A DNA stretch of 58,900 nucleotides from Nemertoderma westbladi (taxonomy: Eukaryota > Animalia > Xenacoelomorpha): NCBI GenBank assembly GCA_032718475.1, contig JAUCBJ010002206.1:1-58900 (forward strand), in the 5' to 3' direction. Below the pieces are notes generated by a model. That model was given only the letters and a program-made list of their open reading frames with translations. It was not told the origin of the DNA and ran no database searches. The position numbers were made by a program, and so were the translations under genes. Numbering within the stretch: the stretch's first letter is position 1; every line of letters starts with the position of its first letter. Positions 2,829-57,869 of this stretch are shown here, piece after piece.

Positions 2829-3197
2829 GCTCGCATAATCCCATATCAGAGTTTTTAGTTTAGAAGCAACAAATTCCACGGTCTTGTTAGGATCGCAGAG
2901 CTCATTCCCTCCAAACATCAAAACAATGATACAGGGATTACACTCCCATGAGTGCATGATGTTCTGGGTGTTATGTGTTTCAAATACACGACCCGATCCG
3001 CACTGAAAACGAACATTGGCAACTGTTGGGGAGAGCCCAAAGTTGTTGTCAGCGTTTGGCTCACGCTGGATGAAATCAAAGAGATGATCCGGGTGGGATG
3101 AACCGACAATGGCAACCTCGTGGAGGTGCCCCACAGGACAAACCTTGGTAAAATCAGGGTTTGATAGATTAAAACGCGATTTGTGGGTAGCTGCCAT
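2829..3197 (-). pseudogene. SGNH/GDSL hydrolase-like gene, C-terminus cut off by the RTE LINE
   Basis: Block I-like VAIVGSSH, block II-like FQCGSG and block III-like CIIVLMFGGNEL. ATG at 3197. The last part of the listed ORF (2712-2828) is antisense LINE sequence. Confidence 0.75.
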
Positions 3198-4559
3198 ATT
3201 GAAAATACATGAAGTGGCTGGCACAAATGGATAGGAGAAACATTTTCATCGCTCTTCTTATACTACTTAAATTTAATTAACAGAACAGCTGTTGGCTGTA
3301 ACCAATCACAAACAACTAAATTAAAGCAGGTGATTGCGTGATTGGGCCTAACCATCAATTATGGTAGGCCCCTACTGTATGATGTACAGCCCACGCAATC
3401 CAATGTAACACCAATAAAGGTTAATATCACTTTACTTATTGGTTGACTAATACAATACCTGGTTATGTTAACTAATACTTTATAAAGGTTGTAATGGAGA
3501 TATGAGCTGGGGGCACAAATAGGAGCCCTATTGAGACGGGATGGGGGTGGGGGGTAGTATATTTGAGTAAATATTGTGATGGCGGAAATAGTCCCACCAT
3601 TGCGTCAATAAAAGTTATATCCCTAGATCAGTTCCTATATGTTCTGAATGTTTGGGAATGTCAGAACAGAAATATTATATACTGTATATATAAAACATGA
3701 CCTCGATCAGTACAGCAGTATATTAAGCTTAGGCAAGGTAATACATAATATTGAATGGTAAACACTGAAACTCTCAGTACCGTAGTAGAAGTGAAGTACT
3801 TGTTATAATAATATGAGCCTTATATAGGGTGGTAATATATACTGCATTTGTTACATCCTCCACCACCGAAAAAAAAATTTCCGAAAACAAAATATTTATG
3901 ACAAAAAAATATATATACCGTATATCACACAATGACAACTTTATGCGTATGTATGCTTAAATTTAATAACTTTCATACACTACAAATCTGTACAAATCAA
4001 CAATTTGTATTATTAACGAAAAAAAAAATTATTATTATTATTATTTTTTTTTTTTATTTTAATCGATTATTTTTTGTAATCGATTTATTTGCACTTATTG
4101 CATAATCCATTAAAGTTCGTAGCAGTATGTAGATAACATAATTATAAAATAAGCCATAGTTATTATATAATAAGTACTTTAATATTGTTTATCAATTGAA
4201 TTATAATGCCAGTAGTTTCTTGCACAATAATATTAATTTGTCTTTCGTTTTAGCTTATTTAATTAATTGAAGAGTATATTGTTCTTAAGAACTATCATCC
4301 ATATCAAATAATTCCTCAATTAGTTCTTCAATTTTCGTACGTATGTCCGAATTAGTCCAGTTTATAAACCGGGATTGTATAAATTGTTCATCGCGGGTAA
4401 TAGGGACAGAGTTGAATTTTGGAACACGGGCATAACATTCTCCTTTAGTTAGAAACGTTTTTAATGTTTCCTTAAGGCGCCGCCGGCCAATTTCCCCAAT
4501 GTTGGTAAATTGCGAGAAGAGAATTCACAACCCCCTATCCCTCTCGGTACATCCATTGT

Positions 4560-5115
4560 CAGTTCGGGCATGCAGGGAGGACTCGGGCATTGCAGTTAAC
4601 GGCAGTATAAAATTTGCGTCATTAACATTAAAGTGTTCACAAAAATATAAATTAAATGCTTCAGCCTTTTCTGCTGATGTCACTGCAACTTTATTATTGT
4701 AAATAATGGGTGGAATTTCGAACTTGAATTTGAAATTTTTGAAATTTGTTTACCCATCAAGCGCTTGCAATGAGCCCACCATTGTTTGCTTGTTAAAGAT
4801 GTGGAGTAAAGTTTTTCAGATAGTTTAGAAAAATAATTAAGTTTGGCCAACCGACATTCTGAAATATATTTATTTCGGGCGTGTCGAAAATTTATCCAGA
4901 CCTGCTGTGTTTGGATAACTACACAGTGCTTCTCTGTTTTGTGCAACCTATTCTTTTGACGTGCTAGGCGATGCAAATATGTATTGTACCAGGGTTTATC
5001 ATTTGGACAAATTGTAACTAGTTTGTTTGGTATGGCGGTGCTAGCACAGGCAATGAATTATGGAGTCCAGCCTGATACAACATTGTCCACAGAGTCATCT
5101 GTGCTATACAATCTA
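4560..5115 (-). mobile_element. Degenerate CR1/L2-group LINE ORF2 fragment (EN-RT linker)
   Basis: KPWYN...RQKNRLHK...ARNKY...AKLNYF...KQWW...EKAEAFNLYF is a typical linker pattern between APE and RT. Confidence 0.7.
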
Positions 5116-5124
5116 TCCCAGGAT

Positions 5125-5463: not shown

Positions 5464-6310
5464 TCAAGGAGTTGGGTTGGGGAGGGGTCTATATGCTTCC
5501 CTGACATATAACTTTGCAGCTGACATTTTTTTTGTCAGTGATGGCGATTTAAGTGGGGAACGTGGTGATTTCTGGATTGATACAGAATTCATACTAGATG
5601 TGGCACTACCGGATATGGCAGCAGAGGTAGATGCAGCTGTAGTGTTAGCAAGGGATGTAGCACTCCCCAGCCCAGCTCTGGTATTATGATCAAGGACCTT
5701 GTGAAGGGCAGAGTGGCCCTCGAACATATCCTGAGCATCCTGCATTTGTTGCTCCCCTGTCTGGGCCATTGACTTAAGTAAGTCGTGGGCATTAAATTTA
5801 TTCACAGTGGAAAATATGTAGTTCCTATGGCGGGTTATTGCACTATAGTAGAGGTAACTCGCTAGGCTATTCCTTGTGGAATCACAAGGAATTACTGAGG
5901 CTGCCGTTTCCATTACCTTTCTCACATTGGTTACCGATGGACAATATGATAATTGAAAATAATTATGGAACCTTGCTATTTCCTGTGTTACTGAAGACCC
6001 ATATATATTGCCACAGGAATTCACGAATACATATTCACAATTTGGTGACCCCGGTAATTGCTTGAGCCACTCGTTTCTGATAGTTTTAATATATGATTCA
6101 ATCATACTATACGTATCTGCATCAAGTACAACACCTGCATGGATTATGTCTTTGTTTTGTGATTTGCCGCAAGTATTAGATGCTGGTTTGATGGGGAAAC
6201 AAAGGCTTTATTTATTTGTTGATCGTTGAAACTCAGAGAGTTTCATGCAGCCAGCAACACTTGGCCTCTGCTGCTCACCAATACATATAAGACACGGTAT
6301 TGGAGCGGTA
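5464..6310 (-). pseudogene. Tyrosine recombinase pseudogene (HKT type), related to the YR at 51910-54029
   Basis: In order: QQRPSVAGCMKLSEF (catalytic R), ANHKTK in a shifted frame near 6150-6170 (K), YVFVNSCG, VTNVRKVMET (second R) and LASYLYYSAITRHRNY (H position degenerate, catalytic Y). Stops and frameshifts are present. Confidence 0.78.
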
Positions 6311-7344
6311 TCTCATGATGGCCTTCAGGGTGTGATTAAAACTATCGGACTGCAGTAAAGATGTCCGATTGGATCCTGTCTCCATAAGCCGAAACTCGAA
6401 GTATCAAATGAATGCCACCGAGATTTGTCGAATTTGAATGGAATCACTCGAAACCCATTTCAACGTTGTTTTGGGCCTTTTGTATTTGATAGGCCATTCT
6501 TGAGACCTTATACAACTGATCTACTATACATTTTTTTGATGTCTTCTGCTGCTGCTCTAAAGATGATTTCCATCGTAAGAGTTCAGTGGAACTATCCACA
6601 ATGAACCTTTGATAGTACCCCTCCCTCTGTAGATTTCCTTTTGTTGTACCTTCTTTCTAGCATTAAGATGGTTCTACCTACAATGTTATCCACAATTATT
6701 GCATCTTCTTCTGGCTCACTATCCGATTCCAATATGGCACACTTTCGTGGCCATTTTGGATTCGGAGAATTTGCAAAAAGAGTCCTTTTTGCTGAATTTA
6801 GAGCAGCAGCATAATCACATCGATCTCCTACGACTATCGAGCATGGGCTAATAAAATAAGCCCACGGTCGACTGAATCCATGACACCTGTTATATTCATC
6901 AGCCTAACATCAGCCTGCACCTCCACTGATCCTCCATCTGTGGTAAATGTGCATTCACCACTGATTGGTCCTGATGTGCCACCCTCTTGTTCCTATGCCC
7001 CTCCAAGTTCACCAAATAAACTATTAATAAAAATAAATATATAATAGCGTAAAAAGAATAAAGTTCGGAGACGTATATAATAATATAGTAAATATGATAT
7101 TATAAGTAATTACAAATATATATCGACGGTAATAGCCGTCATTATCAATGCATATAATCCTATACAGAAGTTGGGAGTAAGTGACCTAATTATTAATAAT
7201 GGAAATTGCATATTAAATAGTGAAATGGCACAAAATCGCACAGACCACACGACAAAACTGCTACATACTACTGTACTACAATAACAGTACTAAGTCCTAC
7301 ATACATACGAAAATACCCCCCCCCCCTTTTTTTTTCCCCGTTTC

Positions 7345-8146: not shown

Positions 8147-9078
8147 GCCAAGCAAGAATTTAAACTGCTTACAAACAATAACGTGGACTGGGCATTGGTT
8201 GATTTCCACTTAGTCAATATACTGAAGATATTCAAAGAAACTTCACCAAAGAACAGGGGGGAATCTGTGGCTAATATCGTTTCCCAGTGCGAGAAATGGG
8301 AGGATAAATGTTCGCAAAGAGTTAAGGTATTGATGGGTCTGTCGATGTTCTTTAGTGAACCAGCCTGTATCATTGTTAAGAATGTGGTAAGTTAGCCTTT
8401 GTTTTTACGACTGGATTTCAGTATATATTTATATTACTTGTATTATATTTATTTAAAATACCGCTATTATATATTTCATTTCTATAATACACCGTTATGA
8501 TTTACATCACAAATTATTAATTATTATTACTATTATTATTTTAATGACGGTTCATGGCCTGTCCAGCCTTTAATGAAATATTAAATTCATTACTTTATTA
8601 CTTTAAATTAAATTAGTACCACTTTATTATTTTTTGTTACAATATGAAAATGTTTGTGATCAATATTTCGTAACTTTGGTTAACCATGATGATGACAATA
8701 CATTTAATATACTGTAAACTCATTATATATTTTAGGAGGATGTGAGTAATCCCCATGGGATTGAGGAGGGACAGGGTGAGCTTGCCCATGGAGATGATTC
8801 CGGTGATGAGTTGGAGAATATTTCTGCGGTTGAATTGAGTACCAGAACAGGGGATTTGCCGTGCTTCATTACAGTAATGGTTCAACCGGATGAGGGAAAG
8901 GTGGAGGCTGCGATTGTTACTATGGAGGGGAGTATTGTCGGCAAGGTGATTCCCACTTTTTGACGACGCGTTCCTTTATCTACTGGCACTAATATTCGCC
9001 ATGAACTTCGAGTTCCCGGATGACATCTCCAATTTCATTGCTGGACTGAACAGCATTCTCAAATTAGATTGTTCCTAA
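8147..9078 (+). CDS. Last two exons (8147-8386, 8736-9078) of a SAMD3-like-family orphan gene, with a 1-nt frameshift
   Basis: Canonical ttttag/gtaagt sites and a phase-0 join keep the frame open. Removing one T from the T-run near 8960 gives VTMEGSIV...TFDDAFLYLLALIFAMNFEFP, which resembles the C-terminus of 'SAMD3-like' proteins. Confidence 0.6.
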
Positions 9079-12715: not shown

Positions 12716-12719
12716 AACA

Positions 12720-22600: not shown

Positions 22601-23284
22601 ATGATGTGGCTCAGGTTTAGATATATTGGCCAAACTTTATTGAGTTTTGGATTCGGGTGGATTTCGGGGTCAAAAGTATCATTATCTGTAAAATGAAGAT
22701 TTTTTATTCAAAGCCTTGAAATGCTTTAGAAGCATACAGTGTTTAAAAATCGGGGTAGCTACCACTGGACGTTTTGTCCAGTACATCCAATAGTCCTGTT
22801 TATTTATAATGCCTAGAAGCATTGTAAGAGCAAAAAAGACACGAATTTCTGCCCCAGTTGTAGGTTGCCAAGACTGGTTGTTCTGAGCTGCATACCGATT
22901 ATTCTCAGTGGCAATAATATCAACTAGAGTATCATCATAAAACAGATTGAAAAATTCCAGAACTTCCCCATCCCATGTAAGTGTATAATAAAGTAATAGT
23001 GTATGGTGTAAATAAATTGAATGAATAAATAAATTCGATTTAAATTAAATGAATAAACAAAACCATTTACATTACATCATTAATTACAGTTGCAACAGCT
23101 CATCTCCAATTTATGTAATTAATATCACCTGGCAGCAATACCCAAGCTGAATATTTATTTATTTGTACTTCCCTCCTGTTTCACTCTAGCATACTTGAGG
23201 CCGTTAGAATATATGCAACTATAATTATAGAATATATGCAACTTAAGACAGCCCATTAAATAGAAGTGGGTTAGGTGAGAGGGT

Positions 23285-36800: not shown

Positions 36801-37300
36801 TGTCTACATGTATATTAAAGTCGCCTACCACAATTAGTCGCTCCTCACAGCAAAGCCATGGTTCGATGAATTTCGGGAATTCGTCAAAAAACGTTAAGCA
36901 TGTAATGGGATGAGCTGTACTATATGGTGGGCGGTATATAACGACCAAACATAGTTTGGTGTTAGAAGATTTAATGGACCATACTGAGTATTCGAATGAG
37001 CTATTTTCGTTAGTGCTGTGCAGTGTGTAGTGTAATGAGTCTTTTAGAATTACACCGGTGCCTCCACCAGGGCGGTTAAGCCGTGGTGAGTCATCGATAG
37101 TGTATCCCTTTGGAGCGCAAAGGTTCTTTGCCACTGTATCGTTAGCGCTGAACCAGGTTTCTGTTAGCGCGCATATGTCAATATTATTGTTGGAAATAAA
37201 TTCCACAATCTCGGCGCTTTTGTTTCGGGCTGACCTGGGGTTCATAATGCAAAGGTGAAGTGAGTTGCCAGGTAACATGTTGATATGAGTAATTACTTTA
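33883..37300 (-). mobile_element. L2-clade LINE with uninterrupted APE + RT ORF2 and complete 3' end
   Basis: NPRS, LTETW, YRPP, GDFN, TLDL and SDH (APE), then LLDLSSAFDTVDH, GFPQG, GYADD and LHWLPV (RT); stop at 34345. The 3' UTR ends in GCGCC...GGCGCTATACAAATGCATC(ATT)n. Confidence 0.93.
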
Positions 37301-37304
37301 GCAT

Positions 37305-39022: not shown

Positions 39023-40919
39023 AATTAATCTTTAAATTAATCTAATAAATCAACAACTAAAGCCCGGTTTCCATGATTTAACATAGCTACAGTACTATAG
39101 CTATAGTACTATATACTAATACTAGCTATAGTAATACTACAGCTGCAATAGTATTATACTAATTAATACTACAATAGTAATACTAACAGTTGGCCATGTC
39201 TCACAGCTACCTCCTACTGTATTTCAGATACTCTCATCCCGGTTTCACAACACTACTGCCGCTAAATGTGGAATGCCACAGTACTGGTTCTGCTGCTGCA
39301 AAACCTACAAAATCTATATATATAATTATATCAATCAAGAGATTAAATAATATTTTTATAATCTGAGGCGAATCGGAGCAGCACTTAGGCTGCTTAGCGA
39401 TAGTCCAGGAATTATAAAAATAATGGAAATAAAAACCAATACGAAAAAAAGGCAATTAAAAACTGGTATTGAAGAAAAAGATAATAAAAACCAGTAAGAA
39501 AAAGGCAAGTAAATCATGGTGATTAAAAAGAAAAGTCAAAACTTTTATAGGTAATGAAGAAAAATTGAATAGTAAAAACCAGGTAAAAAAAAGGCATTTA
39601 AAAACTGGTGATAAAATAAGAATGTAAAAACGAATAATAAAGAAATGGGAAGAAAACCAGTAAGAAAAAACGGCAAGTAAAGTAAAGTAAAAACTGATAG
39701 ATTGCACATTTCCCCTGCACAACCACATGATACCCCCTTGGTTTGGCCGCTGGTTCCTATTGATACTTTGGCCTTTCTATCTAAATCATGTACCGGTACT
39801 TCACACATTCATTTAAGTCTCTTTGGGTTGTGAAATGTGAACTCATAACTCAGTTCTACCCAGTAGTTACTGGTATGATTCACAACTCGTATCTTGTAGT
39901 TTAATTAGTTTAATTTAATTAGTTAGTTTAATTTTAATAGCGCTCATAGTACTTTCACACCTCTCATACTGTACTGATGTTACTCTTATTCCACTGTGCC
40001 ACTGTTTTAGTAGCATTCTTATACGTAGGCCTTATACGTAGGCCTTTCGTAGGTCAGGTTGACCTGAATTAATTAGTCTGTTGAATGTGTCAGTTTGTGT
40101 TTAACCCCTGTTTTTAGATCCCCCATCACCTCTGTCAGTAACGTCTTGGCTGTCAGGTTCCTATCTACTAGTGTAAAGTTCGGTGTGTCAGTGAGGAATG
40201 ACAAAGTATCCAAACTAAAGTCTCTAACATAGTGTTGTCAGTCAGTATTAAGTTCAGTAAAAGGCGTCATTAGGATGAGCCAATGGCAAACTGTAATTGT
40301 GGTATTGGTGCCACCCCTGTCCCGTGTCATGCAATTTTGCCATTGGATCAGCGACTCGTCACATGGTACAATCGTCGCCCCCCACATGCAGTCCTATACG
40401 TCCTCTGTATAATACCGTGGTGTCCGTGGCAATGTCATTTGCTCCACAAATTCCAGACCTAGAAAGGCGTGGTTGGAAAGGGATCGAGCAATATTGGATC
40501 TGATCTCTAGAACAAGAGTCTCCGAGTGTTTAACAGCTGTGAAGAGTCCGTGGTTTAGTGTGGCTTATAACTTGCCTTGGCTAATGGCGGATAGATCGAT
40601 GTCGACAGGTCTGCCCCCATCTCTGTCTCACCCAAAACCCCACCCCAGCCCCCACCCTCATGTCTCACCCCCACCTCCCACCCCACACCCTCACGCTCTG
40701 CCCCCCACTTACCAATCCCACCCATCCACTCTGTTCTAATCTAACCATCAATTAAATCTGTCTATTCTGGTACTCAACCGGCCTCTCTCAACCCATGCCC
40801 CCAACCCCTTGTCCCTCATGCCCCCCCCCCCCCCCCGCCCTCCACCCCCCAACGCCTACCCCCACACTCCACCCCACCCCATCCCCCACCCCATGCCCCA
40901 CCCGCCACCCCAACCTGGC

Positions 40920-41430
40920 ACCCCCACAACCCACATCCCACCCTCCCCACCCCCCACATACACAGACCCACACTCCCACACACGGTTTTCTGCGGTAAGT
41001 TGTCTGCTATTTTCATTATTTGATTGTGTGGCCCTTATTTAAAAGAGCCACTCAGAAATAGGAATTACTGTGGACACTAACCACAGCAAGTAGATTGGCC
41101 CTTAAAAGGGCCGTTTGGGTTGTTAGGACTTAATGTGGGCGCTACACCACAGCAGGTAGAGCATGCTGGATAGTGCAATCCCCACCCCCCACAACCCACA
41201 TCCCACCCTCCCCACCCCCCACATACACAGACCCACACTCCCACACACGGTTTTCTGCGGTAAGTTGTCTGCTATTTTCATTATTTGATTGTGTGGCCCT
41301 TATTTAAAAGAGCCACTCAGAAATAGGAATTACTGTGGACACTAACCACAGCAAGTAGATTGGCCCTTAAAAGGGCCGTTTGGGTTGTTAGGACTTAATG
41401 TGGGCGCTACACCACAGCAGGTAGAGCATA
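40920..41430. repeat. Direct duplication of about 245 bp
   Basis: CCCCCACAACCCACATCC...GCAGGTAGAGCAT occurs at about 40921-41164 and about 41185-41429. Confidence 0.9.
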
Positions 41431-41870
41431 CTAGTGCAATGCAACTTGCTCTGTCCGACATCACTAAGGTGTATGTCATCAGAGTGAAGCAAGGCTCCTC
41501 CCTGCAGCCGATGGCATAGAGCACCTTTCATGGCTATGATGCGGTCGTATTGGTTTTACCTCAGCCACGCCGCCATCCTGCTGTTTGTAGCCACACGCCA
41601 CGAATCAAAATCGGGGTCCACAGGTATTCTCTTCAGGCGCTTTGACCGCGGGACGATTTGTGCCCATAAATCAGAGGAGGCCTCATTGGGTGAATATTCT
41701 GTAATCATTGCCTTCAATTTGGTGACAACATAATCTGTCTCTCTCACACACAGATCGTTGCCTCCAAACATTATAACAATGATACAGGGTTTCTTCTCCC
41801 AATGTTTACTCCACTGGCTCCCCCACACAAAATTGTTGGCAGCAGTCATCCCACTCCATACCACATCCCA
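41430..41870 (-). pseudogene. SGNH/GDSL hydrolase pseudogene
   Basis: CIIVIMFGGNDL (block III), LWAQIVPR and, past the stop at 41556 in the same frame, LLHSDDIHLSDVGQ (block V DxxH). Similar to the copy at 2829-3197. Confidence 0.82.
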
Positions 41871-44800
41871 AAAAAATAGCAAGTGAATGGTCATCAATTA
41901 TTGTCAAACTTTCACTAATAAATAATTCGATTATGTTTGCATAAAAAACAGACATTAAGAAAATTTGGTTAGTATAATTATAAGTAGCTCAATGATGGTT
42001 CATTCACGTAAAATTCCTGAAGAGATTGATCACTTTAAAATTGCCAACCCTACCCAGCTGCAATACGATGGACAACAAGGTAGATGAGATAAATGATATA
42101 AAATTGAGATAAATTATTATATAGAAACAAAATGTTCCAGAACTATATATGTATATTTATTTAATAGAATAATTTAATTATCACAACTACATTTAAAAAT
42201 AAATGTATATAATTGTGTTAATTCTAATCATAACTGCAAATGTAACTTGGGGCAATATAAATATCACATTAAAAATCCTGACACGACCAAATGTATCTCA
42301 TTAAGATTTGTAAAAGAAAATTATAGGGATGAGAGGGTTTCCAAAAGAATTACTTTTCAGTAGCAGTTAGAAACATGAATTAATATAATATAATAGTAAT
42401 AATAATCATAAAATATGTAGTTAATTTCTTCAAACTTACTTCTATATAAATTGAAGTGATAAAGTTTGTCCTTCTTTATGATGGATGTTGTTATATGGAA
42501 CCTGGCAGGTTCTACCTGCTCCGTAGCTGCATCTATTACAGCAGACTGAGCCCATCCAGATATCACCCAACCACCGCGATATCTTTTCAGTTCGTTACGG
42601 ATGTGATTCCGTGCCTAATCATTAGTGACGGATTGATTGTGTCTGAGGCTATAAATAATTATTTATACACTAAATAACTAAATAATTTGGTACTAGGATG
42701 TTGTCAAAGATCTGATGGTGCGAATAAGCAGACTAATGGAAATAATCACGTTACTGTGGCAGGTTATTACAACCAAAACAATTAAATAAGTCAATATCAG
42801 GGGTTTCAGTTTATATGTATATTAATGACAAAAGATGAAACAAAGCTCTTAATAGCGTGGTAAAAGTCAGCACTTCTACAAAATACCCTATATTTCGGGC
42901 ACACAACTTATAGTGTAATAAAATGCGTTAACTAACATAACATAAGGCTTCATTATAGGTATCTGTACGCACTGATATGGGATTTGCGTCCAGTTTCTCA
43001 CCCTCTCCATATCTCGACGAGATACTAAAATATATGCCCGAGACCAATCTGTGATTGTGTATATATTTACTTTGGAGTTAATGTTAATCTTTATTTGATA
43101 GATATACCAAATCTGTTACTTGAAGTACATCTTTAGGGAAGAATAACATCGGAAATTCAGTGTTCGAAAACATGTGTGGTATAATAATGTTATCCTCCTT
43201 ATCAATTATCATCTTGTCCCATTTAGGTCGAAACGAGACTACCCACTCCTTGTGAACTGTGCGAAAGCATGGGCATGGTTGAACTCTAACCAGCCCATTG
43301 CCCCCTTGCTGGCGCAAACATAATCCATAGAAATCTGTATCAAAAATATATTTATATTATATGGAGAAAATATTTCGGCGAATGATTTAATAAATCCAAA
43401 ACATTTTCACAATGTTGTGCATGCTACAAAAACCTTGAATAATGCAACTCAACTCAAAGTTGGTTATGTTCTTCGGAAATTGGATAATTTAATCAGGTGT
43501 GAAGCCATTAAATCGCAGAATGCAGAAATTCAAGCACTGGTAAACAACTTCATGTGACTGTACAAGTGGCATGTCAAAATCTCATCTTCTTCTTTGTATA
43601 GAATGAAGAAATCCCATTTTAATAAAGTTGATGACCTTACAGAGGATATCCTTTCATTACACAATTATACTAGAGACGGCTTCAAGACGCCGTTAAGCAA
43701 GTCGGAAGTCATCAATCAAATGTAAATTCCATCAACAAGCTGTCATTGGTGTTATTTTACCATTGCGCCTATGGCGTTTTTTCATTAATCTCTATTTTTC
43801 GAGCCCACGGCTCATGGACGAAATAGCGGAACATACCAGGGACCTTAGAATCGCGGTATCTAGCTGCTGTGAAAATTTGATCAAAATCGTTAAGAGTAGT
43901 TTTGGCTGTAGATCAGTCAGTCAGCCAGTCAGTCAGCCAGTCAATCAGCCAACAATTCTTACAGTAATCAAGTTTTCAACCTTCAATTTGGTGACAACAA
44001 AATCTGTCTCTCTCACACACAGATCGTTGCCTCCAAACATTATAACAATGATACAGGGTTTCTTCTCCCAATGTCTACTCCACTGGCTCCCCCTCACAAT
44101 CTGGCCTCCCTGGTGACCCAGGGTTTGGGCCAGAAAGGAAATCAGTAAAGGGACTCACAAAATTGATGGCAGCAGTCATCCCACTCCATACCACATCCCA
44201 AAAAAATAGCAAGTGAATGGTCATCAATTATTGTCAAACTTTCAGTAATAAATAATTCGATTATGTTTGCATAAAAAACAGACATTTAGAAAATTTGGTT
44301 AGTATAATTATAAGTAGCTCAATGATGGTTCATTCACATAAAATTCCTGAAGAGATTGATCACTTTAAAATTGCCATCCCTACCTAGCTGCAATACGATG
44401 GACAACAAGGTAGATGAGATAAATGATATAAAATTGAGATAAATTATTATATAGAAACAAAATGTTCCAGAACTATATATGTGTATTTATTTAATAGAAT
44501 GATTTAATTATCACAACTACATTTAAAAATAAATGTATATAATTGTGTTAATTCTAATCATACCACAAACAGCTTTCAAATAAAAAAACTATTTAGGTAG
44601 AAGAATAACTGCAAATGTAACTTGGGGCAATATAAATATCACATTAAAAATCTTGACACGACCAAATGTATCTCATTAAGATTTGTAAAAGAAAATTATA
44701 GGGATGAGAGGGTTTCCAAAAGAATTACTTTTCAGTAGCAGTTAGAAACATGAATTAATATAATATAATAGTAATAATAATCATAAAATATGTAGTTAAT

Positions 44801-47800
44801 TTCTTCAAACTTACTTCTATATAAATTGAAGTGATAAAGTTTGTCCTTCTTTATGATGGATGTTGTTATATGGAACCTGGCAGGTTCTACCTGCTCCGTA
44901 GCTGCATCTATTACAGCAGACTGAGCCCATCCAGATATCACCCAACCACCGCGATATCTTTTCAGTTCGTTACGGATGTGATTCCGTGCCTAATCATTAG
45001 TGACGGATTGATTGTGTCTGAGGCTATAAATAATTATTTATACACTAAATAACTAAATAATTTGGTACTAGGATGTTGTCAAAGATCTGATGGTGCGAAT
45101 AAGCAGACTAATGGAAATAATCACGTTACTGTGGCAGGTTATTACAACCAAAACAATTAAATAAGTCAATATCAGGGGTTTCAGTTTATATGTATATTAA
45201 TGACAAAAGATGAAACAAAGCTCTTAATAGCGTGGTAAAAGTCAGCACTTCTACAAAATACCCTATATTTCGGGCACACAACTTATAGTGTAATAAAATG
45301 CGTTAACTAACATAACATAAGGCTTCATTATAGGTATCTGTACGCACTGATATGGGATTTGCGTCCAGTTTCTCACCCTCTCCATATCTCGACGAGATAC
45401 TAAAATATATGCCCGAGACCAATCTGTGATTGTGTATATATTTACTTTGGAGTTAATGTTAATCTTTATTTGATAGATATACCAAATCTGTTACTTGAAG
45501 TACATCTTTAGGGAAGAATAACATCGGAAATTCAGTGTTCGAAAACATGTGTGGTATAATAATGTTATCCTCCTTATCAATTATCATCTTGTCCCATTTA
45601 GGTCGAAACGAGACTACCCACTCCTTGTGAACTGTGCGAAAGCATGGGCATGGTTGAACTCTAACCAGCCCATTGCCCCCTTGCTGGCGCAAACATAATC
45701 CATAGAAATCTGTATCAAAAATATATTTATATTATATGGAGAAAATATTTTGGCGAATGATTTAATAAATCCAAAACATTTTCACAATGTTGTGCATGCT
45801 ACAAAAACCTTGAATAATGCAACTCAACTCAAAGTTGGTTATGTTCTTCGGAAATTGGATAATTTAATCAGGTGTGAAGCCATTAAATCGCAGAATGCAG
45901 AAATTCAAGCACTGGTAAACAACTTCATGTGACTGTACAAGTGGCATGTCAAAATCTCATCTTCTTCTTTGTATAGAATGAAGAAATCCCATTTTAATAA
46001 AGTTGATGACCTTACAGAGGATATCCTTTCATTACACAATTATACTAGAGACGGCTTCAAGACGCCGTTAAGCAAGTCGGAAGTCATCAATCAAATGTAA
46101 ATTCCATCAACAAGCTGTCATTGGTGTTATTTTACCATTGCGCCTATGGCGTTTTTTCATTAATCTCTATTTTTCGAGCCCACGGCTCATGGACGAAATA
46201 GCGGAACATACCAGGGACCTTAGAATCGCGGTATCTAGCTGCTGTGAAAATTTGATCAAAATCGTTAAGAGTAGTTTTGGCTGTAGATCAGTCAGTCAGC
46301 CAGTCAGTCAGCCAGTCAATCAGCCAACAATTCTTACAGTAATCAAGTTTTCAACCTTCAATTTGGTGACAACAAAATCTGTCTCTCTCACACACAGATC
46401 GTTGCCTCCAAACATTATAACAATGATACAGGGTTTCTTCTCCCAATGTCTACTCCACTGGCTCCCCCTCACAATCTGGCCTCCCTGGTGACCCAGGGTT
46501 TGGGCCAGAAAGGAAATCAGTAAAGGGACTCACAAAATTGTTGGCAGCAGTCATCCCACTCCATACCACATCCCAAAAAAATAGCAAGTGAATGGTCATC
46601 AATTATTGTCAAACTTTCAGTAATAAATAATTCGATTATGTTTGCATAAAAAACAGACATTAAGAAAATTTGGTTAGTATAATTATAAGTAGCTCAATGA
46701 TGGTTCATTCACGTAAAATTCCTGAAGAGATTGATCACTTTAAAATTGCCATCCCTACCTAGCTGCAATACGATGGACAACAAGGTAGATGAGATAAATG
46801 ATATAAAATTGAGATAAATTATTATATAGAAACAAAATGTTCCAGAACTATATATGTGTATTTATTTAATAGAATGATTTAATTATCACAACTACATTTA
46901 AAAATAAATGTATATAATTGTGTTAATTCTAATCATACCACAAACAGCTTTCAAATAAAAAAACTATTTAGGTAGAAGAATAACTGCAAATGTAACTTGG
47001 GGCAATATAAATATCACATTAAAAATCCTGACACGACCAAATGTATCTCATTAAGATTTGTAAAAGAAAATTATAGGGATGAGAGGGTTTCCAAAAGAAT
47101 TACTTTTCAGTAGCAGTTAGAAACATGAATTAATATAATATAATAGTAATAATAATCATAAAATATGTAGTTAATTTCTTCAAACTTACTTCTATATAAA
47201 TTGAAGTGATAAAGTTTGTCCTTCTTTATGATGGATGTTGTTATATGGAACCTGGCAGGTTCTACCTGCTCCGTAGCTGCATCTATTACAGCAGACTGAG
47301 CCCATCCAGATATCACCCAACCACCGCGATATCTTTTCAGTTCGTTACGGATGTGATTCCGTGCCTAATCATTAGTGACGGATTGATTGTGTCTGAGGCT
47401 ATAAATAATTATTTATACACTAAATAACTAAATAATTTGGTACTAGGATGTTGTCAAAGATCTGATGGTGCGAATAAGCAGACTAATGGAAATAATCACG
47501 TTACTGTGGCAGGTTATTACAACCAAAACAATTAAATAAGTCAATATCAGGGGTTTCAGTTTATATGTATATTAATGACAAAAGATGAAACAAAGCTCTT
47601 AATAGCGTGGTAAAAGTCAGCACTTCTACAAAATACCCTATATTTCGGGCACAAAACTTACAGTGTAATAAAATGCGTTAACTAACATAACATAAGGCTT
47701 CATTATAGGTATCTGTACGCACTGATATGGGATTTGCGTCCAGTTTCTCACCCTCTCCATATCTCGACGAGATACTAAAATATATGCCCGAGACCAATTT

Positions 47801-50327
47801 GTGATTGTGTATATATTTACTTTGGAGTTAATGTTAATCTTTATTTGATAGATATACCAAATCTGTTACTTGAAGTACATCTTTAGGGAAGAATAACATC
47901 GGAAATTCAGTGTTCGAAAACATGTGTGGTATAATAATGTTATCCTCCGTATCAATTATCATCTTGTCCCATTTAGGTCGAAACGAGACTACCCACTCCT
48001 TGTGAACTGTGCGAAAGCATGGGCATGGTTGAACTCTAACCAGCCCATTGCCCCCTTGCTGGCGCAAACATAATCCATAGAAATCTGTATCAAAAATATA
48101 TTTATATTATATGGAGAAAATATTTCGGCGAATGATTTAATAAATCCAAAACATTTTCACAATGTTGTGCATGCTACAAAAACCTTGAATAATGCAACTC
48201 AACTCAAAGTTGGTTATGTTCTTCGGAAATTGGATAATTTAATCAGGTGTGAAGCCATTAAATCGCAGAATGCAGAAATTCAAGCACTGGTAAACAACTT
48301 CATGTGACTGTACAAGTGGCATGTCAAAATCTCATCTTCTTCTTTGTATAGAATGAAGAAATCCCATTTTAATAAAGTTGATGACCTTACAGAGGATATC
48401 CTTTCATTACACAATTATACTAGAGACGGCTTCAAGACGCCGTTAAGCAAGTCGGAAGTCATCAATCAAATGTAAATTCCATCAACAAGCTGTCATTGGT
48501 GTTATTTTACCATTGCGCCTATGACGTTTTTTCATTAATCTCTATTTTTCGAGCCCACGGCTCATGGACGAAATAGCGGAACATACCAGGGACCTTAGAA
48601 TCGCGGTATCTAGCCGCTGTGAAAATTTGATCAAAATCGTTAAGAGTAGTTTTGGCTGTAGATCAGTCAGTCAGCCAGTCAGTCAGCCAGTCAATCAGCC
48701 AACAATTCTTACAGTAATCAAGTTTTCAACCTTCAATTTGGTGACAACAAAATCTGTCTCTCTCACACACAGATCGTTGCCTCCAAACATTATAACAATG
48801 ATACAGGGTTTCTTCTCCCAATGTCTACTCCACTGGCTCCCCCTCACAATCTGGCCTCCCTGGTGACCCAGGGTTTGGGCCAGAAAGGAAATCAGTAAAG
48901 GGACTCACAAAATTGTTGGCAGCAGTCATCCCACTCCATACCACATCCCAAAAAAATAGCAAGTGAATGGTCATCAATTATTGTCAAACTTTCACTAATA
49001 AATAATTCGATTATGTTTGCATAAAAAACAGACATTAAGAAAATTTGGTTAGTATAATTATAAGTAGCTCAATGATGGTTCATTCACGTAAAATTCCTGA
49101 AGAGATTGATCACTTTAAAATTGCCATCCCTACCCAGCTGCAATACGATGGACAACAAGGTAGATGAGATAAATGATATAAAATTGAGATAAATTATTAT
49201 ATAGAAACAAAATGTTCCAGAACTATATATGTGTATTTATTTAATAGAATAATTTAATTATCACAACTACATTTAAAAATAAATGTATATAATTGTGTTA
49301 ATTCTAATCATACCACAAACAGCTTTCAAATAAAAAAACTATTTAGGTAGAAGAATAACTGCAAATGTAACTTGGGGCAATATAAATATCACATTAAAAA
49401 TCCTGACACGACCAAATGTATCTCATTAAGATTTGTAAAAGAAAATTATAGGGATGAGAGGGTTTCCAAAAGAATTACTTTTCAGTAGCAGTTAGAAACA
49501 TGAATTAATATAATATAATAGTAATAATAATCATAAAATATGTAGTTAATTTCTTCAAACTTACTTCTATATAAATTGAAGTGATAAAGTTTGTCCTTCT
49601 TTATGATGGATGTTGTTATATGGAACCTGGCAGGTTCTACCTGCTCCGTAGCTGCATCTATTACAGCAGACTGAGCCCATCCAGATATCACCCAACCACC
49701 GCGATATCTTTTCAGTTCGTTACGGATGTGATTCCGTGCCTAATCATTAGTGACGGATTGATTGTGTCTGAGGCTATAAATAATTATTTATACACTAAAT
49801 AACTAAATAATTTGGTACTAGGATGTTGTCAAAGATCTGATGGTGCGAATAAGCAGACTAATGGAAATAATCACGTTACTGTGGCAGGTTATTACAACCA
49901 AAACAATTAAATAAGTCAATATCAGGGGTTTCAGTTTATATGTATATTAATGACAAAAGATGAAACAAAGCTCTTAATAGCGTGGTAAAAGTCAGCACTT
50001 CTACAAAATACCCTATATTTCGGGCACACAACTTATAGTGTAATAAAATGCGTTAACTAACATAACATAAGGCTTCATTATAGGTATCTGTACGCACTGA
50101 TATGGGATTTGCGTCCAGTTTCTCACCCTCTCCATATCTCGACGAGATACTAAAATATATGCCCGAGACCAATCTGTGATTGTGTATATATTTACTTTGG
50201 AGTTAATGTTAATCTTTATTTGATAGATATACCAAATCTGTTACTTGAAGTACATCTTTAGGGAAGAATAACATCGGAAATTCAGTGTTCGAAAACATGT
50301 GTGGTATAATAATGTTATCCTCCTTAT
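41711..50327. repeat. Tandem array of a 2375-bp unit (about 3.7 copies) carrying SGNH and YR gene fragments
   Basis: Identical ORFs at 42357, 44732, 47107 and 49482. Junctions near 43980, 46355 and 48730. The first unit is about 106 bp shorter, and there are few substitutions between units. Confidence 0.97.
43360..43760 (+). pseudogene. N-terminal (core-binding-region) fragment of a second-family tyrosine recombinase; repeated near 45735 and 48110
   Basis: DLINPKHFHNVVHATKTL...LKVGYVLRKL...CEAI...NNFM*LYKWHVKISS.SL..MKKSHFNK..DLTEDI..LHNY resembles the region preceding the catalytic domain in the family seen at 25555-25790. Confidence 0.6.
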
Positions 50328-50560: not shown

Positions 50561-50754
50561 CTGGACTGGTCTAGCAGTCTAGTGATAGTCAGATAGTGGC
50601 TGAGTGGTAGTGTAGTGCAGTAGTTTGTGATTGTGATGATATACGGTACTGTCAGGGCAGGGTCAGCAGTCAGCCTGTATTAGTGTTATATTGTATAATG
50701 TATGAATGAATATAAAAAAAACAATACGATGGGATAATACTGTAATTAATAAGC

Positions 50755-51779
50755 GGACAATTCCGACCCGAACACTTGCGACCCGGAAAATCCAACACCG
50801 ACAATTCCGACCCGAACACTTGCGACCCGGAAAATCCAACACCGACAATTCCGACCCGAACACTTGCGACCCGGAAAATCCAACACCGACAATTCCGACC
50901 CGAGCACTTGTGACCCGGAAAATCCAACACCGACAATTCCGACCCGAACACTTGCGACCCGGAAAATCCAACACCGACAATTCCGACCCGAACACTTGCG
51001 ACCCGGAAAATCCAACACCGACAATTCCAACCCGAACACTTGCGACCCGGAAAATCCAACACCGACAATTCCGACCCGAACACTTGCGACCCGGAAAATC
51101 CAACACCGACAATTCCGACCCGAACACTTGCGACCCGGAAAATCCAACACCGACAATTCCGACCCGAACACTTGCGACCCGGAAAATCCAACACCGACAA
51201 TTCCGACCACCAAACCGACAATTCCGACCCGAACACTTGCAACCCGGAAAATCCAACACCGACAATTCCGACCCGACCACTTGCGACCCGGAAAATCCAA
51301 CACCGACAATTCCGACCCGAACACTTGCGACCCGGAAAATCCAACACCGACAATTCCGACCAGAACACTTGCGACCCGGAAAATCCAACACCGACAATTC
51401 CGACCCGAACACTTGCGACCCGGAAAATCCAACACCGACAATTCCGACCCGAACACTTGCGACCCGGAAAATCCAACACCGACAATTCCGACCACCAAAC
51501 CGACAATTCCGACCCGAACACTTGCGACCCGGAAAATCCAACACCGACAATTCCGACCCAAACACTTACGACCCGGAAAATCCAACACCGACAATTCCGA
51601 CACGACCACTTGCGACCCGGAAAATCCAACACCGACAATTCCGACCCGAACACTTGCGACCCGGAAAATCCATCACCGACAATTCCGACCCGAACACTTG
51701 CGACCCGGAAAATCCAACACCGACAATTGCGGCCCAATTAAGTTTCATGGATATTTTAGTGGGTCGGAATTAGCTGTCC
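50755..51779. repeat. 44-bp minisatellite (about 22 copies) bounded by short inverted ends
   Basis: Unit CGACAATTCCGACCCGAACACTTGCGACCCGGAAAATCCAACAC. The left end GGACAATTCCGACCC is mirrored by GGGTCGGAATTAGCTGTCC at 51761-51779. Confidence 0.9.
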
Positions 51780-51909
51780 TTGTTAATAAGCATTTAGACT
51801 ATTTGTAGTAAATCGTTCTTAATTAAAATTTATCGCTATTTTACATTATGTAATATTCGATATACTGTGCTCGTTTATAAGTTGTTCGCTGCAAGAAGTC
51901 AATAAAATC

Positions 51910-54029
51910 TCAATCTATATTATTATGTGGGTAGGATATAGGGTTGATTGTCTGGGTCATAATTAATTGACAGTATACCATAAACACCAACAACAAAATT
52001 TTATAGTAGCACATTATAATTTGCATTGTTTGTGTTTTTATGGTGGTGATATAATAAATATTAATAAATAAATAATATTGGCCTGAGGTCAAAACAAAAC
52101 TATAATTATATAAATAAAAAACAAACTTTTCTCTTGAAGGTGAAACGTCTATAGCATTGGAATCTGGTCCTGTAGCATTGGAATCTGGTCCTATAGCATT
52201 GGAATCTGGTCCTATAGCATTGGAATCTGGTCCTGTAGCATTGGAATCTGGTCCTATAGCATTGAAATCTGGTCCTATAGCATTGGAATCTGGTCCTATA
52301 GCATTGGAATCTGGTCCTGTAGCATTGGAATCTGGTCCTATAGCATTGGAATCTGGTCCTGTAGCATTGGAATCTGGTCCTGTAGCATTGGAATCTGGTC
52401 CTGTAGCATTGGAATCTGGTCCTGTAGCATTGGAATCTGGTCCTGTAGCATTGGAATCTGGTCCTGTAGCATTGGAATCTGGTCCTATAGCATTGGTGTC
52501 TGGAGCAGTAGAACCAGGATGTGAAAGAGCAAAGTTGAATGCCCTTTGATGTCTATCACGTGCTGATAAAGCCTCACTGGTTGACTGAACAGCCTCATAT
52601 ATCCGTAATTGTGTTTCCCTAGAATGACCCATTGAGTGAGCAGCGTTTTCTTTTTCATGGACTTCTCCTGGTAGTCTTTGGTTGAAAAAACTCTTGGCGT
52701 GCCGAAAACTAGTCGATCCTGCCTTCGACTTGGAACCTGGGACGAGTTTTTGCCACAGGTTATTAAGTGGGATGCTGGTGTTGTTAAGTTGCTCTCCATT
52801 ACGTGTCACAAATACGAAACTTGAATCAGAAGACAACGTACGAGAAGTGTATAATGTGCGACCGATATAAACCCATTTCTTTAATAAAACGTAATCCTTA
52901 TAGCTAATGATAATTTTCTGTGGTCCATAAAATCCTGAGGTCTTGTGATTTGGTACTTGAAAAATAAACACATTATTACCGCTGATATCTGTGGTTACAA
53001 AACCCTCCTTGAAATGTTTCACTTTTAAGTTCTTTACAACACACTCTCGCAATCCCAGGTCGTATATTATTAGACTTATAAGATACGTTTGCATTTCTGT
53101 CAGTTCGTCTTTGTCATCAACGTCAGGTAACCTTGTAATATTGTCGCGAATTTTATCAATATATGAAGACGTCTGAAACTTATTTATCTCCTCAGCTGTA
53201 GGCATGGTTTCCGTAGCCCTTTGGCGAACTGTATAGGCGTGCTTTCTAACATCGGACTTCTGTCGCCGTTGTAAATCTTTTGTCACTGTCAGGCCTTTCA
53301 CGGCCCCGCTAACATCATTTAAGACAAGAAATTCAAAGTATCTCTGAAGTCTCCTTAGTACGGCTTTCAGTGTATTGGCAGACCGGGTGCCACCACCACG
53401 AATTTTCTCAGAAGCTACTTGACAGTATGCATTATGTAATTTTTGTGGATCACTTATCTCATCGAACCTTAGTATGTAGTTCTCTTTATTATCACCCATA
53501 TGTTTAAAGAATGTTCTCACACTCGAAGCTATCATTAAGATATCCCTCTCTCTTTCTTTTAATGATTCTTCATTATAATCTGCTTTCAAATAATCCATAA
53601 ATTGATCCATCATAGGAGGTTCACCTGGTTCACCAGCGTCAATAGCAGGTAGTATATAACGACTTGGATCATGTAACATTCGTTCACGCTCTGGATCTCC
53701 GGGTAGAAGATTGTGTTTACAAGTCAGATGGTCACCAATCTTATAAAAACATTTATTGCAAATTAAGCACCGCGATATTCGACGATTCGGTTTCTTTTTA
53801 CCACTTTTATATAATCTTATCACACCAGATTTCTTAAAATATAGTTCTTTACTCTCCAGAGACAGCCGGCTTAAAACCCCGGCATGTTGTATTTGGTGTC
53901 GATTGCGTAGATGATCATTAATTCGAAGCGTTTCTTTGTGACAGAGTTTACAGATTCTAGGTATATGAGAGTCTTTTGATTTTTGTGGCATGGAAACATC
54001 ATCACAATCTCCATTGGTATCAATGCAAT
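51910..54029 (-). CDS. Large exon encoding two C2H2-like zinc fingers + tyrosine recombinase + PDSNATG repeats
   Basis: CKLC..INDHLRNRH and CLIC..IGDHLTCKH fingers. YR motifs GLRE (R, about 53048), NHKT (K), FVFVTRNG, TSFRH (R) and AHSMGHSRETQLRIY (H, Y). No internal stops. The acceptor ttctccgtag at 54030 is in frame with MPQK. The true 3' end after about 52140 is uncertain. Confidence 0.9.
52150..52497. repeat. 21-bp coding tandem repeat (PDSNA[T/I]G)n, about 16 copies
   Basis: TAGCATTGGAATCTGGTCC(TG/TA) repeated in frame. Confidence 0.95.
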
Positions 54030-54995: not shown

Positions 54996-56152
54996 CATTC
55001 TGCTGGGTCGTAGCCGCATCAAACTCCTCCTGTGTCGTGGCCGCATCAAACTCCTCCTGTGTCGTGGCCGCATCAAACTCCTCCTGTGTCGTGGCCGCAT
55101 CAAACTCCTCCTGTGTCGTGGCCGCATCAAACTCCTCCTGTGTCGTGGCCGCATCAAACTCCTCCTGTGTCGTGGCCGCATCAAACTCCTCCTGTGTCGT
55201 GGCCGCATCAAACTCCTCCTGTGTCGTGGCCGCATCAAGCTCCTGAAAAATATCACCGACACCCTGGTAACATGTGTCATTGTTGGCCATCTGTTGCATG
55301 GCAATGCCTGCGTTCGGCAGTGTAGTTGGTTGTGGAACATCATGCCACGATGCAGAAGCGTTAACCGATGGATCTGCGTTAAAATATAGGACAACAAAAT
55401 ATACAATCACAGTAAGGAAGGATGGAATGTGCCCTTTGTTATGAAACTGGCGTTTGTGACACTTAGAAAAACACCATCGACATTTGAACGGACTCTAAGC
55501 AAGATTATATTTTACTTCTCGATATATGGCTTGGCTGTCTGTCTGTCTACCCGATAGTCTATTTTATAAAGTTTAAATACCGGTACCTCCATGTTTTTCT
55601 GAACTTCCATCATCTTCATCCAATAAACTTTCTAGTTCTTCTAAGTCAGGTGGTATTTCTGAACTTCCATCAACTTCATCCAATAAACTTTCTGGTTCTT
55701 CTAAGTCAGGTGGTGCGACGCTGTTATCTGTAATAAATTAATTGGTGTTGAGCTAATGAAACTAAAAATTAAGGAACAGTCATGTTTCAGGTGCCGAAAA
55801 ATGCTACACCAGACCAGACCGTACAGTTACGTATACAAGTATACAATTAATACAGCAATACAGAATTACTAAAATATTATTAATTTATGAGTTTGTACAG
55901 TGAATTTGAACAGGCTAGGGGGGGGGGGGGGGGGGGAGCTAGAGTATTATTGGTTCATTATTTTGGGCATGGTTAGTCAGCCCCCAATCCTAATTAAAAC
56001 TGTCATGCAAAAATGCTCAATGCTTACATAGGGTTAGGTATTTGACTAAAAATGCTGGTACCGGTAACAAAATTCACCTGACTCACCTCGATCGAGATCT
56101 AGCCCCAACTCAATAAGAGTATTTCGATTGTGAATTGTATTAACCGGTGTAT
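54996..56152 (-). CDS. Upstream phase-1 exons of the YR gene: 56087-56152, 55587-55727, 54996-55373 (acidic, repeat-containing)
   Basis: Lengths of 66, 141 and 378 bp are all multiples of 3. All have AG/GT borders and open phase-1 frames that join in frame to the exon starting at 54029. They contain a 60-bp duplication (PPDLEE.ESLLDE.DGSSE) and a 27-bp repeat (DAATTQEEF) of about 9 copies. Confidence 0.7.
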
Positions 56153-56953
56153 CTATTCGCCCGGACGAATAAACGAATGAACCCCTGCAAATATATAAAG
56201 TTCATTGCAGGACGCAATTCACTGAATTTCAGGGCGTACAGTTCTCTTAAATACCGGTAGGCCTATATCAGATCTGTACATATTATCATATAAATAAGAA
56301 AAATATATAATAATTAATAATAACATAATAATAATAATATATAATAATAGCCATACATCCATGAAAAAATTTAGCTTCCTATACGTTAGGCGTAATTTGG
56401 GACATCATATAGGCTATAGGTTTAAAAAATAAATATTGTGATTGTAAAAAAATAGTATGACTAATAAATAAATAAAGGATACAAAGACTGCAACAGCCGA
56501 ACACTGACTGTTCAGATGTTAGCTATACCGGTACCTCTGAAAACTGAAAATAGTAAAAAAAAAGCATTTTAGACTGCCCACACTGGTACACGCAACTGTT
56601 TGTGCTTTACTATTTTCAGTTTTTTGTCTGTCTGTATCAGTAGGCTACCTGTTGTAGCATACTGATCACTGATGCGCTTTGAAATCACCCAATATACAAA
56701 ACTAGCAACTAGTACATTTTACACCCTACACATTTTACCCTGTACATTTTTCACATATTTTTCTAAAATGTTTTATGTCCCAAATTCCCCCAGTTGACCC
56801 TATCTTTAATTCAATGACCACCTAAACCTAACAATGAGACCAGTATTACATCGCCCTAACCTACTACCGGTATTGTAGACTCACTCATTCACATAAGGAG
56901 ATATATTTTAACCAGCCAATATGATGCTCATGCCTTTACATCATAGTTCTTAC

Positions 56954-57869
56954 CTTTGAACGGGAACAACTGCTCTTTTTTTCGAAGGTGTAAAGCAATC
57001 CTTGGCTCTAATCAATTGTTCCTCCGCCAGGTTGAACGAATCTGTAATATAAATTAAACTCATGGTACCGTTATCTAAAGTAAAGCATAGTACTGTAGTA
57101 GGTCGTCAACCCGGTCCCACTTGGTGTAGTGGTAAAACTGGTAACAGTTAAATACCTTGGTGTAGTGGTTGCATTTGCATTGAATTCACATCTCTCTGTA
57201 GGTCGCGGGTTCAATCCCCCCCCCCCCCCCCCCCCCCACATGCCACATGGGCAAGGGCAGTTTTCGTTTCGGCACGAATGCTTTAAAGGGGACTAGCCAG
57301 GGCGCATCTGAGCCTTTCATCCTTAATTGGTAGCTAAATGGGTACAGGTACTGCAGTTTCCTCTGGGGAGTAAAGTTCTGGGGGGACCGCACTGGAAATA
57401 AGTCGTCAGACTTTGTGTGTAAACCCGCCCCCGGCCTAACGGCCGAAGAAAATTTACTTCACTTTACTTTAGGGCTACCGGCGCCGGCAGACCGGTACTT
57501 TTTACAGTGTTTTACTAAAAATATCTGCCGGTAGGTAAAGGTCTGCCAGGCTACCCTACCTGTCACCTGTACAGGCAGACATGTACCGGTAATTATTCAG
57601 TAGAGCTAGACAGCTAGAGGCTTACCTTTTTGATCGATAATAAAAACATCGTAATGTTCCCAGTCCAGCATATCAGATGGTTCCAACATTGATTGTTTCC
57701 TAAGTTTTTTAAACTTTTCATTAGATAATCTCTGGATGTTTGAAGGGTAAGGGCAGTAAGTTACCCGTACCGTTTCGCCATTTCCATCCACCTCATTATC
57801 AGTCGACAACCAACGGGTCGGGACTGTTAATAGACTATTATCGACAATAAACTTCACCACGGAGAACAT
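56954..57869 (-). CDS. First two exons (57626-57869, 56954-57041) encoding an N-terminal domain like that of DUF4806-type proteins
   Basis: MFSVVKF...LTVPTRWL...CPYP...P....WEHY, gtaag donor, then an in-frame join to DSFNLAEEQLIRAK and another gtaag donor. The link to the YR exons needs one phase-2-to-1 exon. Confidence 0.62.
57157..57470 (+). mobile_element. tRNA-derived SINE in an intron
   Basis: A box TGGTGTAGTGG, B box GGTTCAATCC, central GAGCCTTTCATCCTT..GGTAGCTAAATGGGTAC segment, and a (TTTAC)n-like tail. Confidence 0.7.

Follow-up and report, generated by a model that had tools for sequence, protein, structure and literature searches.

We analysed a 58,900 bp stretch of the genome of the xenacoelomorph Nemertoderma westbladi (GenBank assembly GCA_032718475.1, contig JAUCBJ010002206.1, positions 1 to 58,900), hereafter the window. 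It carries a tyrosine recombinase (YR) gene with an unbroken frame, YR4, near its right edge and a decayed recombinase, YR1, towards its left, together with two further YR-like pieces, two SGNH hydrolase genes and several orphan coding pieces. The window, with a GC content of 30-52%, is broken up by long interspersed nuclear elements (LINEs), piggyBacs, long terminal repeat pieces and satellites; 35,279 of its 58,900 bp (~60%) are transposable element (TE) or tandem repeat, as annotated by hand from open reading frames (ORFs), repeats, Pfam matches and depth steps in public contigs. Pfam was searched with 140 ORFs of at least 62 amino acids (aa), comprising 139 of the 178 listed ORFs (two trimmed) and one added, those left out being mostly antisense frames over TEs. 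The families recovered were reverse transcriptase (RT), DDE_Tnp_1_7, rve, GIY-YIG and GDSL, with a few weak scattered matches. No host housekeeping family was present among these ORFs, which bears out the view of the first-pass annotation that the remainder of the window is not host-like. No Rfam family was found within the window.

The YR4 recombinase and its predicted gene

The main exon of YR4 (51910-54029, reverse strand, 3′ end putative) encodes two C2H2-like fingers, a helical core-binding domain, a catalytic YR domain and a 21-bp repeat in 17 copies. Counted from the methionine at 53991, which also sets the residue numbers used here, the frame is open for 494 aa to position 52510, with the HKT motif at 52947. 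Among 1.84 billion proteins searched, 63 homologs were found at E<=1e-3 and none at 1e-10. The top match (P0001), a protein of phage tail type, was excluded from profiles, alignments and tree. Matches were absent from a protein word-index search covering longer proteins only, from a PDB sequence search, from GTDB and from phage records. Phage_integrase was matched at E<=0.01 by 26 of the 63 homologs, whilst DUF3435 and DUF3504 were found in none of them and not in YR4 (Pfam). The catalytic set comprises R315, H349-K350-T351, R430, H456 and Y465. K350 and T351 are invariant in 58 aligned rows; R315, H349, G356, F394, R430, H456 and Y465 are at least 90% conserved over the same rows and are all present in YR4. 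A structure model (predicted local distance difference test score of 86) had Tre/Cre as its best PDB matches (E 2.6e-6) and integrases as its matches in BFVD. On this model YR4 has a predicted Cre-like fold, and by the alignment the R, K, R, H and Y of the family's catalytic site are all retained in it. The two finger motifs stand at the head of the frame, as they do in 28 of 62 homologs. An HKT-type recombinase had been proposed at 52-54 kb in the first-pass annotation, and the open frame, the 63 homologs, the modelled fold and the retained residues confirm it.

To place the family, members were looked up in 20 clusters, in which the named proteins come from Nematostella, Actinostola, Penaeus, Artemia, Gambusia and Myripristis. 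One cluster (P0007) includes a 'tyrosine recombinase [Marsupenaeus japonicus endogenous nimavirus]', with which YR4 shares 27% identity over 247 aa (E 2e-13) and a second match across the zinc fingers. By sequence similarity, HKT recombinases, most of them unnamed, occur across cnidarians, brine shrimp and fish, and YR4 classes as a member of this nimavirus-type family. The membership holds at family level only, because in a quick tree of 68 rows YR4 stands by itself on a long branch that joins at an open fork, apart from the clade formed by the three nimavirus rows; YR1 forms another such branch. Three Artemia members (P0024, P0075 and P0076) are fusions of an HKT recombinase to a SET domain.

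Upstream of the recombinase exon a longer gene is predicted. Splice sites were ranked among 241 GT and 227 AG sites, scored from consensus frequencies. Six GT-AG exons (57869-57626, 57041-56954, 56184-56087, 55727-55587, 55373-54996 and 54029 onward) together give 1,022 aa free of stops. Predicted exon 1 (57626-57869, reverse strand, as are all the others) begins with an ATG and has the donor ranked 2/241. It is followed in frame by exon 2 (56954-57041; donor 1/241, acceptor 6/227), exon 3 (56087-56184; donor 3/241, acceptor 3/227), the acidic exon 4 (55587-55727; a 60-bp repeat in two copies, acceptor rank 11, donor rank 42) and exon 5 (54996-55373; a 27-bp repeat in nine copies, acceptor rank 9, donor rank 40/241). 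The three best donors of the 241 are thus those of exons 1-3, and the acceptors rank 2-11 of 227. On these splice signals the 'DUF4806-like' and orphan exons are predicted to be fused in frame with the recombinase exon. An earlier five-exon model, which required a weak acceptor, was dropped in favour of this one. Downstream, the AT-rich tail suggests that the reading frame probably leaves via another donor past the 21-bp repeats. The predicted exons contain three frame-keeping tandem repeats, at 52152-52503 (21 bp), 55003-55244 (27 bp) and 55596-55714 (60 bp). The region 3′ of YR4 (50744-51792) holds an insert resembling a miniature inverted-repeat transposable element, with inverted ends and an interior expanded into a 44-bp satellite. 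The gene start lies ~1 kb from the right edge of the window.

Exon 1 is what the first-pass annotation named a DUF4806-like N-domain. The label is a presumed one, and no Pfam family was found in the exon. Its Atlas score to unnamed eukaryotic clusters was 0.95, with a recognition of 1640, which is weak. DUF4806 itself is described as a BEN subtype found on zebrafish chromosome 4R, and the portion of that paper drawn on here contains no link between it and a mobile element (PMC11075544).

Variation was assessed in public contigs from four runs (X1-X4) of three samples, X2 and X3 being one sample; the runs were picked with this stretch. Long contigs cover the YR4 exon in all four runs, with 1-3 differences per 1.15-1.55 kb. 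The listed coding alleles are synonymous in 4 of 4 cases, with one further difference in X3 outside that listing. Judged from these alleles, YR4 is under apparent purifying selection.

Distant homologs and their gene neighbourhoods

One metagenome scan with a sub-alignment of eight cnidarian-type sequences returned 41 candidates, which yielded 13 loci of 1.4-7.1 kb. Three of the 13 have their recombinase beside Bcl-2, or beside TRAF, homeodomain and Fic genes. The largest, L011 (1-7078), has 29% GC, is 91% coding and intronless, and reads in the order TRAF/RING, orphan, homeodomain, orphans, Fic and YR. In L009 (278-3560) and L010 (3-2606) Bcl-2 lies directly behind the YR. Because these three carry an HKT recombinase beside such genes, the family can, on sequence grounds, travel in cargo-rich, virus-like DNA outside crustaceans. 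In the quick tree, Nematostella genome copies are the sister group of L010 and L011 (SH-aLRT 99). The three contigs may represent a cnidarian-type large DNA virus or cargo element that has yet to be described; no hallmark gene was seen on any of them.

Decayed recombinases, SGNH genes and orphan pieces

YR1 (5480-6903, reverse strand) is a decayed HKT-family recombinase with stops and frameshifts. It matches a profile of the homologs built without YR4 at an independent E-value (iE) of 1.6e-11; its main frame has seven stops, and the HKT motif lies in another frame, at 6161. The HKT-type recombinase proposed at 5.5-6.3 kb is thereby upheld, in decayed form. A tblastn search with YR4 found no match on YR1. 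Because of this and of their separate long branches, YR1 and YR4 are read as independent arrivals.

The two remaining pieces are less secure. YR3 (25554-25712, reverse strand) is a C-terminal scrap of 53 aa bearing GH.I.VH..YY; its upstream side has been replaced by high-copy repeats and a LINE, as depth steps indicate. The motif occurs once in six frames, at 25688. The piece reaches an iE of 0.025 to the HKT profile and an E of 0.001 to one homolog, and its Atlas score to unnamed eukaryotic clusters is 0.96 with a recognition of 2211, below the guide of 2300. 'YR2' (43324-43860, forward strand, copies at 45699 and 48074) is a putative N-terminal, non-catalytic piece of a second YR type. No tool confirmed this assignment: the frame matched no family in Pfam, the word-index protein search or the comparison with homologs. 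The first-pass annotation had counted four YR loci of two families, with the GH.I.VH..YY type both at 25.6 kb and in a 2375-bp unit. Two of the four are firm (YR4 and YR1), one is weak (YR3) and one is unverified ('YR2'). The second type is reduced to the single weak 53-aa piece, the motif being absent from the 2375-bp unit. We also considered the pieces at 43.3 kb and 25.6 kb as halves of one rearranged gene, which fits their non-overlap and has no sequence support; the idea was rejected.

'YR2' and a piece of SGNH sequence are carried by a young tandem array of 3.6 x 2375 bp (41826-50327). With 2-11 mismatches per 1.4-2.4 kb between its repeats, it represents the recent 3.6-fold amplification of a single locus.

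Both SGNH genes lie on the reverse strand and are broken. SGNH1 (2836-3197; GDSL, E 0.024) is the N-terminal half of a hydrolase cut by the tail of an RTE-type LINE. That RTE element contains a short inverted copy of its own 3′ end and tail (850-984 versus 2694-2828). SGNH2 (41400-41900; GDSL_2, E 2.1e-6 on read-through) has 120-bp pieces repeated at 43980, 46355 and 48730, and shows GDSL similarity with a GxN block and a DxxH motif at a score below the curated cut-off. The two share 54% identity over 35 aa and are paralogs, so that the earlier description of two related SGNH genes stands. A protein word-index search with the pair found no match. Two IMG/VR stretches were confirmed as relatives of SGNH1 (query 2838-3197), with no loci returned.

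The pairing of SGNH genes with recombinases fared worse. SGNH1 shares a strand with YR1 and lies 2.2 kb downstream of it, whilst SGNH2 is divergent from the 'YR2' piece and 1.4 kb away. With the array collapsed, both SGNH genes would come to lie no more than 2.3-3 kb from a YR locus by chance with P 0.15-0.21 when the whole window is considered and 0.27-0.42 for its non-TE part. Neither the type of YR nor the orientation is shared by the two pairs, one of which involves the unverified YR, and the proximity is at chance level (P 0.15-0.42); an SGNH-YR linkage was rejected as chance.

A better recurrence is that of two orphan coding pieces on the reverse strand, A1 (4288-4574), downstream of YR1, and A2 (23489-23713), downstream of YR3. 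Each lies ~1-2 kb downstream of its YR locus. They are paralogs by sequence match, with 54% identity over 24 aa (E 5.8e-5) and a further 19-aa match upstream. A2 is cut off by a 59-bp direct repeat (95%; 23056-23114 and 23429-23487) that surrounds a high-copy insert. A frameshifted two-exon orphan gene with GT-AG sites lies at 8147-9075 (forward strand); it is negative in Pfam, and 'SAMD3-like' is a presumed label for it. For this gene and the 'DUF4806-like' exon the first-pass annotation was right in that the exons look real by their GT-AG sites, and its labels lack Pfam support. A broken orphan frame at 24640-25014 (forward strand), negative in Pfam at E 0.5, presumably resembles the C-terminal half of an OTU protease by its motif. 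At 40000-40600 (reverse strand) a long, near-open frame with a few stops and no Pfam match at E 0.5 may be another decayed orphan exon. Amongst the TEs, a CR1/L2-type frame of 1,559 aa (34345-39024, reverse strand) has ~600 residues of a 45-bp in-frame repeat ahead of its endonuclease-RT, and the piggyBac at 28286-30583 sits at a TTAA within an L2-type LINE.

Origin of the window

We consider it about evenly poised that the window is a nested graveyard of several independently inserted large YR elements of the nimavirus-integrase family, with YR4 the likely integrase of a still multi-copy element that would extend past the right edge. By analogy with Cre and the nimavirus integrases, recombination by YR4 between short sites at the ends of its own element would release that element in circular form and then place it at a favoured target, and the zinc fingers would bind to arm sites. 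Older insertions would have left behind YR1, the 25.6-kb scrap, the orphan exons and the SGNH pair in decayed form, whether as captains or as passengers. Of the first-pass interpretation this keeps the graveyard of large YR elements and gives up a single element with a recurring YR and SGNH module. The former draws on the inclusion of a nimavirus integrase in the HKT family, on distant homologs in gene-dense contigs with host-manipulating genes, on the recurrence of A1 and A2 and on the predicted introns of YR4; the latter founders on the mismatched, chance-level SGNH pairs, on the match of YR4 alone to the 13 homolog loci and on the absence of DUF3435. Contig depth, which by the tool's own warning is no copy number, was 110-140 over YR4 versus 19-34 in the unique contigs upstream, at 55.9-58.9 kb, in X1, and 267 versus 36-60 in X3. 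At 23.4-24.9 kb it was 41-46 (X1), 29-42 (X2) and 63-66 (X3); X4 is without cover at 22-24 kb and was not used as evidence there.

A number of observations weigh against the nested graveyard with a live YR4 element. Depths over YR4 versus 55.9-58.9 kb were 214-250 versus 125-213 in X2 and 35 versus 26-31 in X4, and X2 and X3 disagree on YR4 despite being one sample. Because of this disagreement, and because depth is no copy number, we take the depths as a hint that YR4 is present in several copies. For none of the YR loci did the joints listed (15 of 87 in one comparison and 15 of 165 in the other, from short contigs) reveal a terminus, a target duplication or an empty site. The approach does detect empty sites: for the piggyBac at 28286-30583, which TTAA flanks on either side, a joint that leaves the element out was present in 4 of 4 runs. 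In the predicted gene, the donor of exon 5 (rank 40) is the weakest link to the recombinase exon, that of exon 4 (rank 42) is also weak, and the N-terminal part had no match in 89 fetched proteins. As for the metagenomic homologs, YR4 was the only window sequence to match the 13 loci, at 22-29% identity, and the non-YR genes of the window had no match there. Two of the three cargo loci share near-identical recombinases (L010 and L011), and for the other 10 loci none of the 89 flanking ORFs matched a Pfam family. By sequence, then, the cargo-rich context belongs to a subclade 22-29% identical to YR4 and beyond its own branch. Lastly, alleles that are synonymous only would equally fit a domesticated host gene.

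Among known systems, the closest are the endogenous nimaviruses. In the sections of Kawato et al. that we draw on (PMC10871703), these are described as giant transposable elements of a 400-kb class, with intron-bearing eukaryotic-like genes and 22-477 copies. The telomere-associated YRs of Majanivirus, Pemonivirus and some Whispovirus are given there as C2H2, SAM-like and YR in sequence, not closely related to the YRs of DIRS, Enterprise or Crypton elements, and non-viral decapod homologs are said to exist. YR4 is like them in its homologous recombinase and in its layout of C2H2 finger, SAM-like and catalytic domains. Unlike them, it sits on a separate long branch and is predicted to have six exons and an extra N-terminal domain; no viral core gene or telomere array was seen in the window, and depth hints at few copies, compared with 22-477. 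Starships are described in the parts of the reports used here as fungal giant YR cargo elements with a DUF3435 captain (PMC13465315, PMC10175614). The likeness is one of analogy, in that large cargo would be moved by a YR and remain at low copy. Against DUF3435 clusters YR4 had Atlas scores of 0.90-0.91, but shared 133-136 of 256 features (guide 170), a distant analogy. The window further differs from Starships in its animal host and in the lack of ends or an empty site among the joints listed. Membership was rejected, as the DUF3435 captain is found in 0 of 63 homologs and not in YR4. CryptonA membership was likewise rejected on DUF3504 (0 of 63 homologs and not YR4). Cryptons (CryptonA/DUF3504 and CryptonV) are, so far as the excerpts cited go, YR-only DNA elements in animals for which introns and domestication are known (PMC13465315, PMC8869645). 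Nimavirus YRs are reported to have no close relationship to them, the comparison with CryptonV/H being by description only. Ngaro retrotransposons also combine a YR and an SGNH in one element, the SGNH overlapping the YR behind gag and RT/RH according to the consulted text of PMC9210276. In the window, no RT or DIRS-type YR motif adjoins the SGNH genes, and the SGNH-YR gaps are 1.4-2.2 kb. Ngaro/DIRS membership was rejected, as the RTs of the window are LINE-type with or without endonuclease and no DIRS YR motif is present. In the open-access literature we found no animal giant YR cargo element other than the crustacean nimaviruses.

A reading we hold rather unlikely makes YR4 either a host gene by domestication or a Crypton-like transposon, small and with a single gene, and treats everything else as debris of unrelated origin gathered in heterochromatin: SGNH genes shed by retroelements and accessory genes from other DNA transposons. 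YR4 is nearly invariant in the three samples, with synonymous changes alone among the listed alleles; domestication has a precedent in CryptonA/ZMYM, as the portion of PMC13465315 cited here records; and 10 of the 13 homolog loci lack recognisable neighbours. Against these stand the retained catalytic residues and the raised depth in 2 of 4 runs. Debris would accord with a window that is ~60% TE or tandem repeat, and SGNH is a known Ngaro passenger (PMC9210276, in the text consulted); yet neither SGNH gene is accompanied by an RT or YR motif of DIRS/Ngaro type. Moreover, the ~20 kb of non-TE sequence contains four YR-like pieces as well as a repeated orphan, which looks dense for unrelated debris, though without a genome-wide baseline.

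We think it improbable that the pieces are remnants of true virion-forming endogenous large DNA viruses of a nimavirus-like kind, with core genes outside the window or decayed. The integrase homology and the same finger, SAM-like and YR architecture would fit this, as would the AT-rich, intronless, gene-dense homolog contigs with their anti-apoptotic or signalling genes, and nimaviruses do carry spliced eukaryotic-like genes in the account available in PMC10871703. However, no viral family was found among the 140 ORFs with Pfam (a weak test, the library being without nimavirus profiles), and no meaningful PHROG match among nine queried, matches at E 0.003-0.09 being set aside as weak. IMG/VR returned no locus from four scans with YR queries, nor from three further scans. 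In the quick tree YR4 stands apart from the nimavirus clade; genes are sparse in the window, and splicing is predicted for YR4 itself. As for insertion in telomere repeats or 28S rDNA, no TTAGG or TTAGGG arrays and no Rfam family were found inside the window, although element ends may lie outside it.

It is very unlikely that the whole 55 kb lies inside a single giant element of the Starship kind with a conserved YR and SGNH module: the lack of host genes over the window and the distances of 2.2 and 1.4 kb between the two SGNH genes and YR-like pieces would agree with it, but the pairing is at chance level and inconsistent, with its second YR unverified, YR1 and YR4 are deeply divergent, DUF3435 is missing, and the parts vary widely in decay and contig depth.

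Building on the nested graveyard, we tentatively raise a broader possibility. HKT recombinases may captain an undescribed, animal-wide class of giant, intron-containing cargo elements in cnidarians, crustaceans and fish, of which the endogenous nimaviruses would be the virus-bearing branch; the window would then hold several graves and the six-exon captain of a live, copy-number-variable one. The giant element itself is not demonstrated by the window, which offers in the unbroken YR4 a concrete handle on the family. Some members of the HKT family adjoin apoptosis and signalling genes. If mobile, such elements would provide a eukaryote-adapted integrase for large cargo, and could lie behind many clusters of 'uncharacterised' genes and many presence/absence regions of animal genomes.

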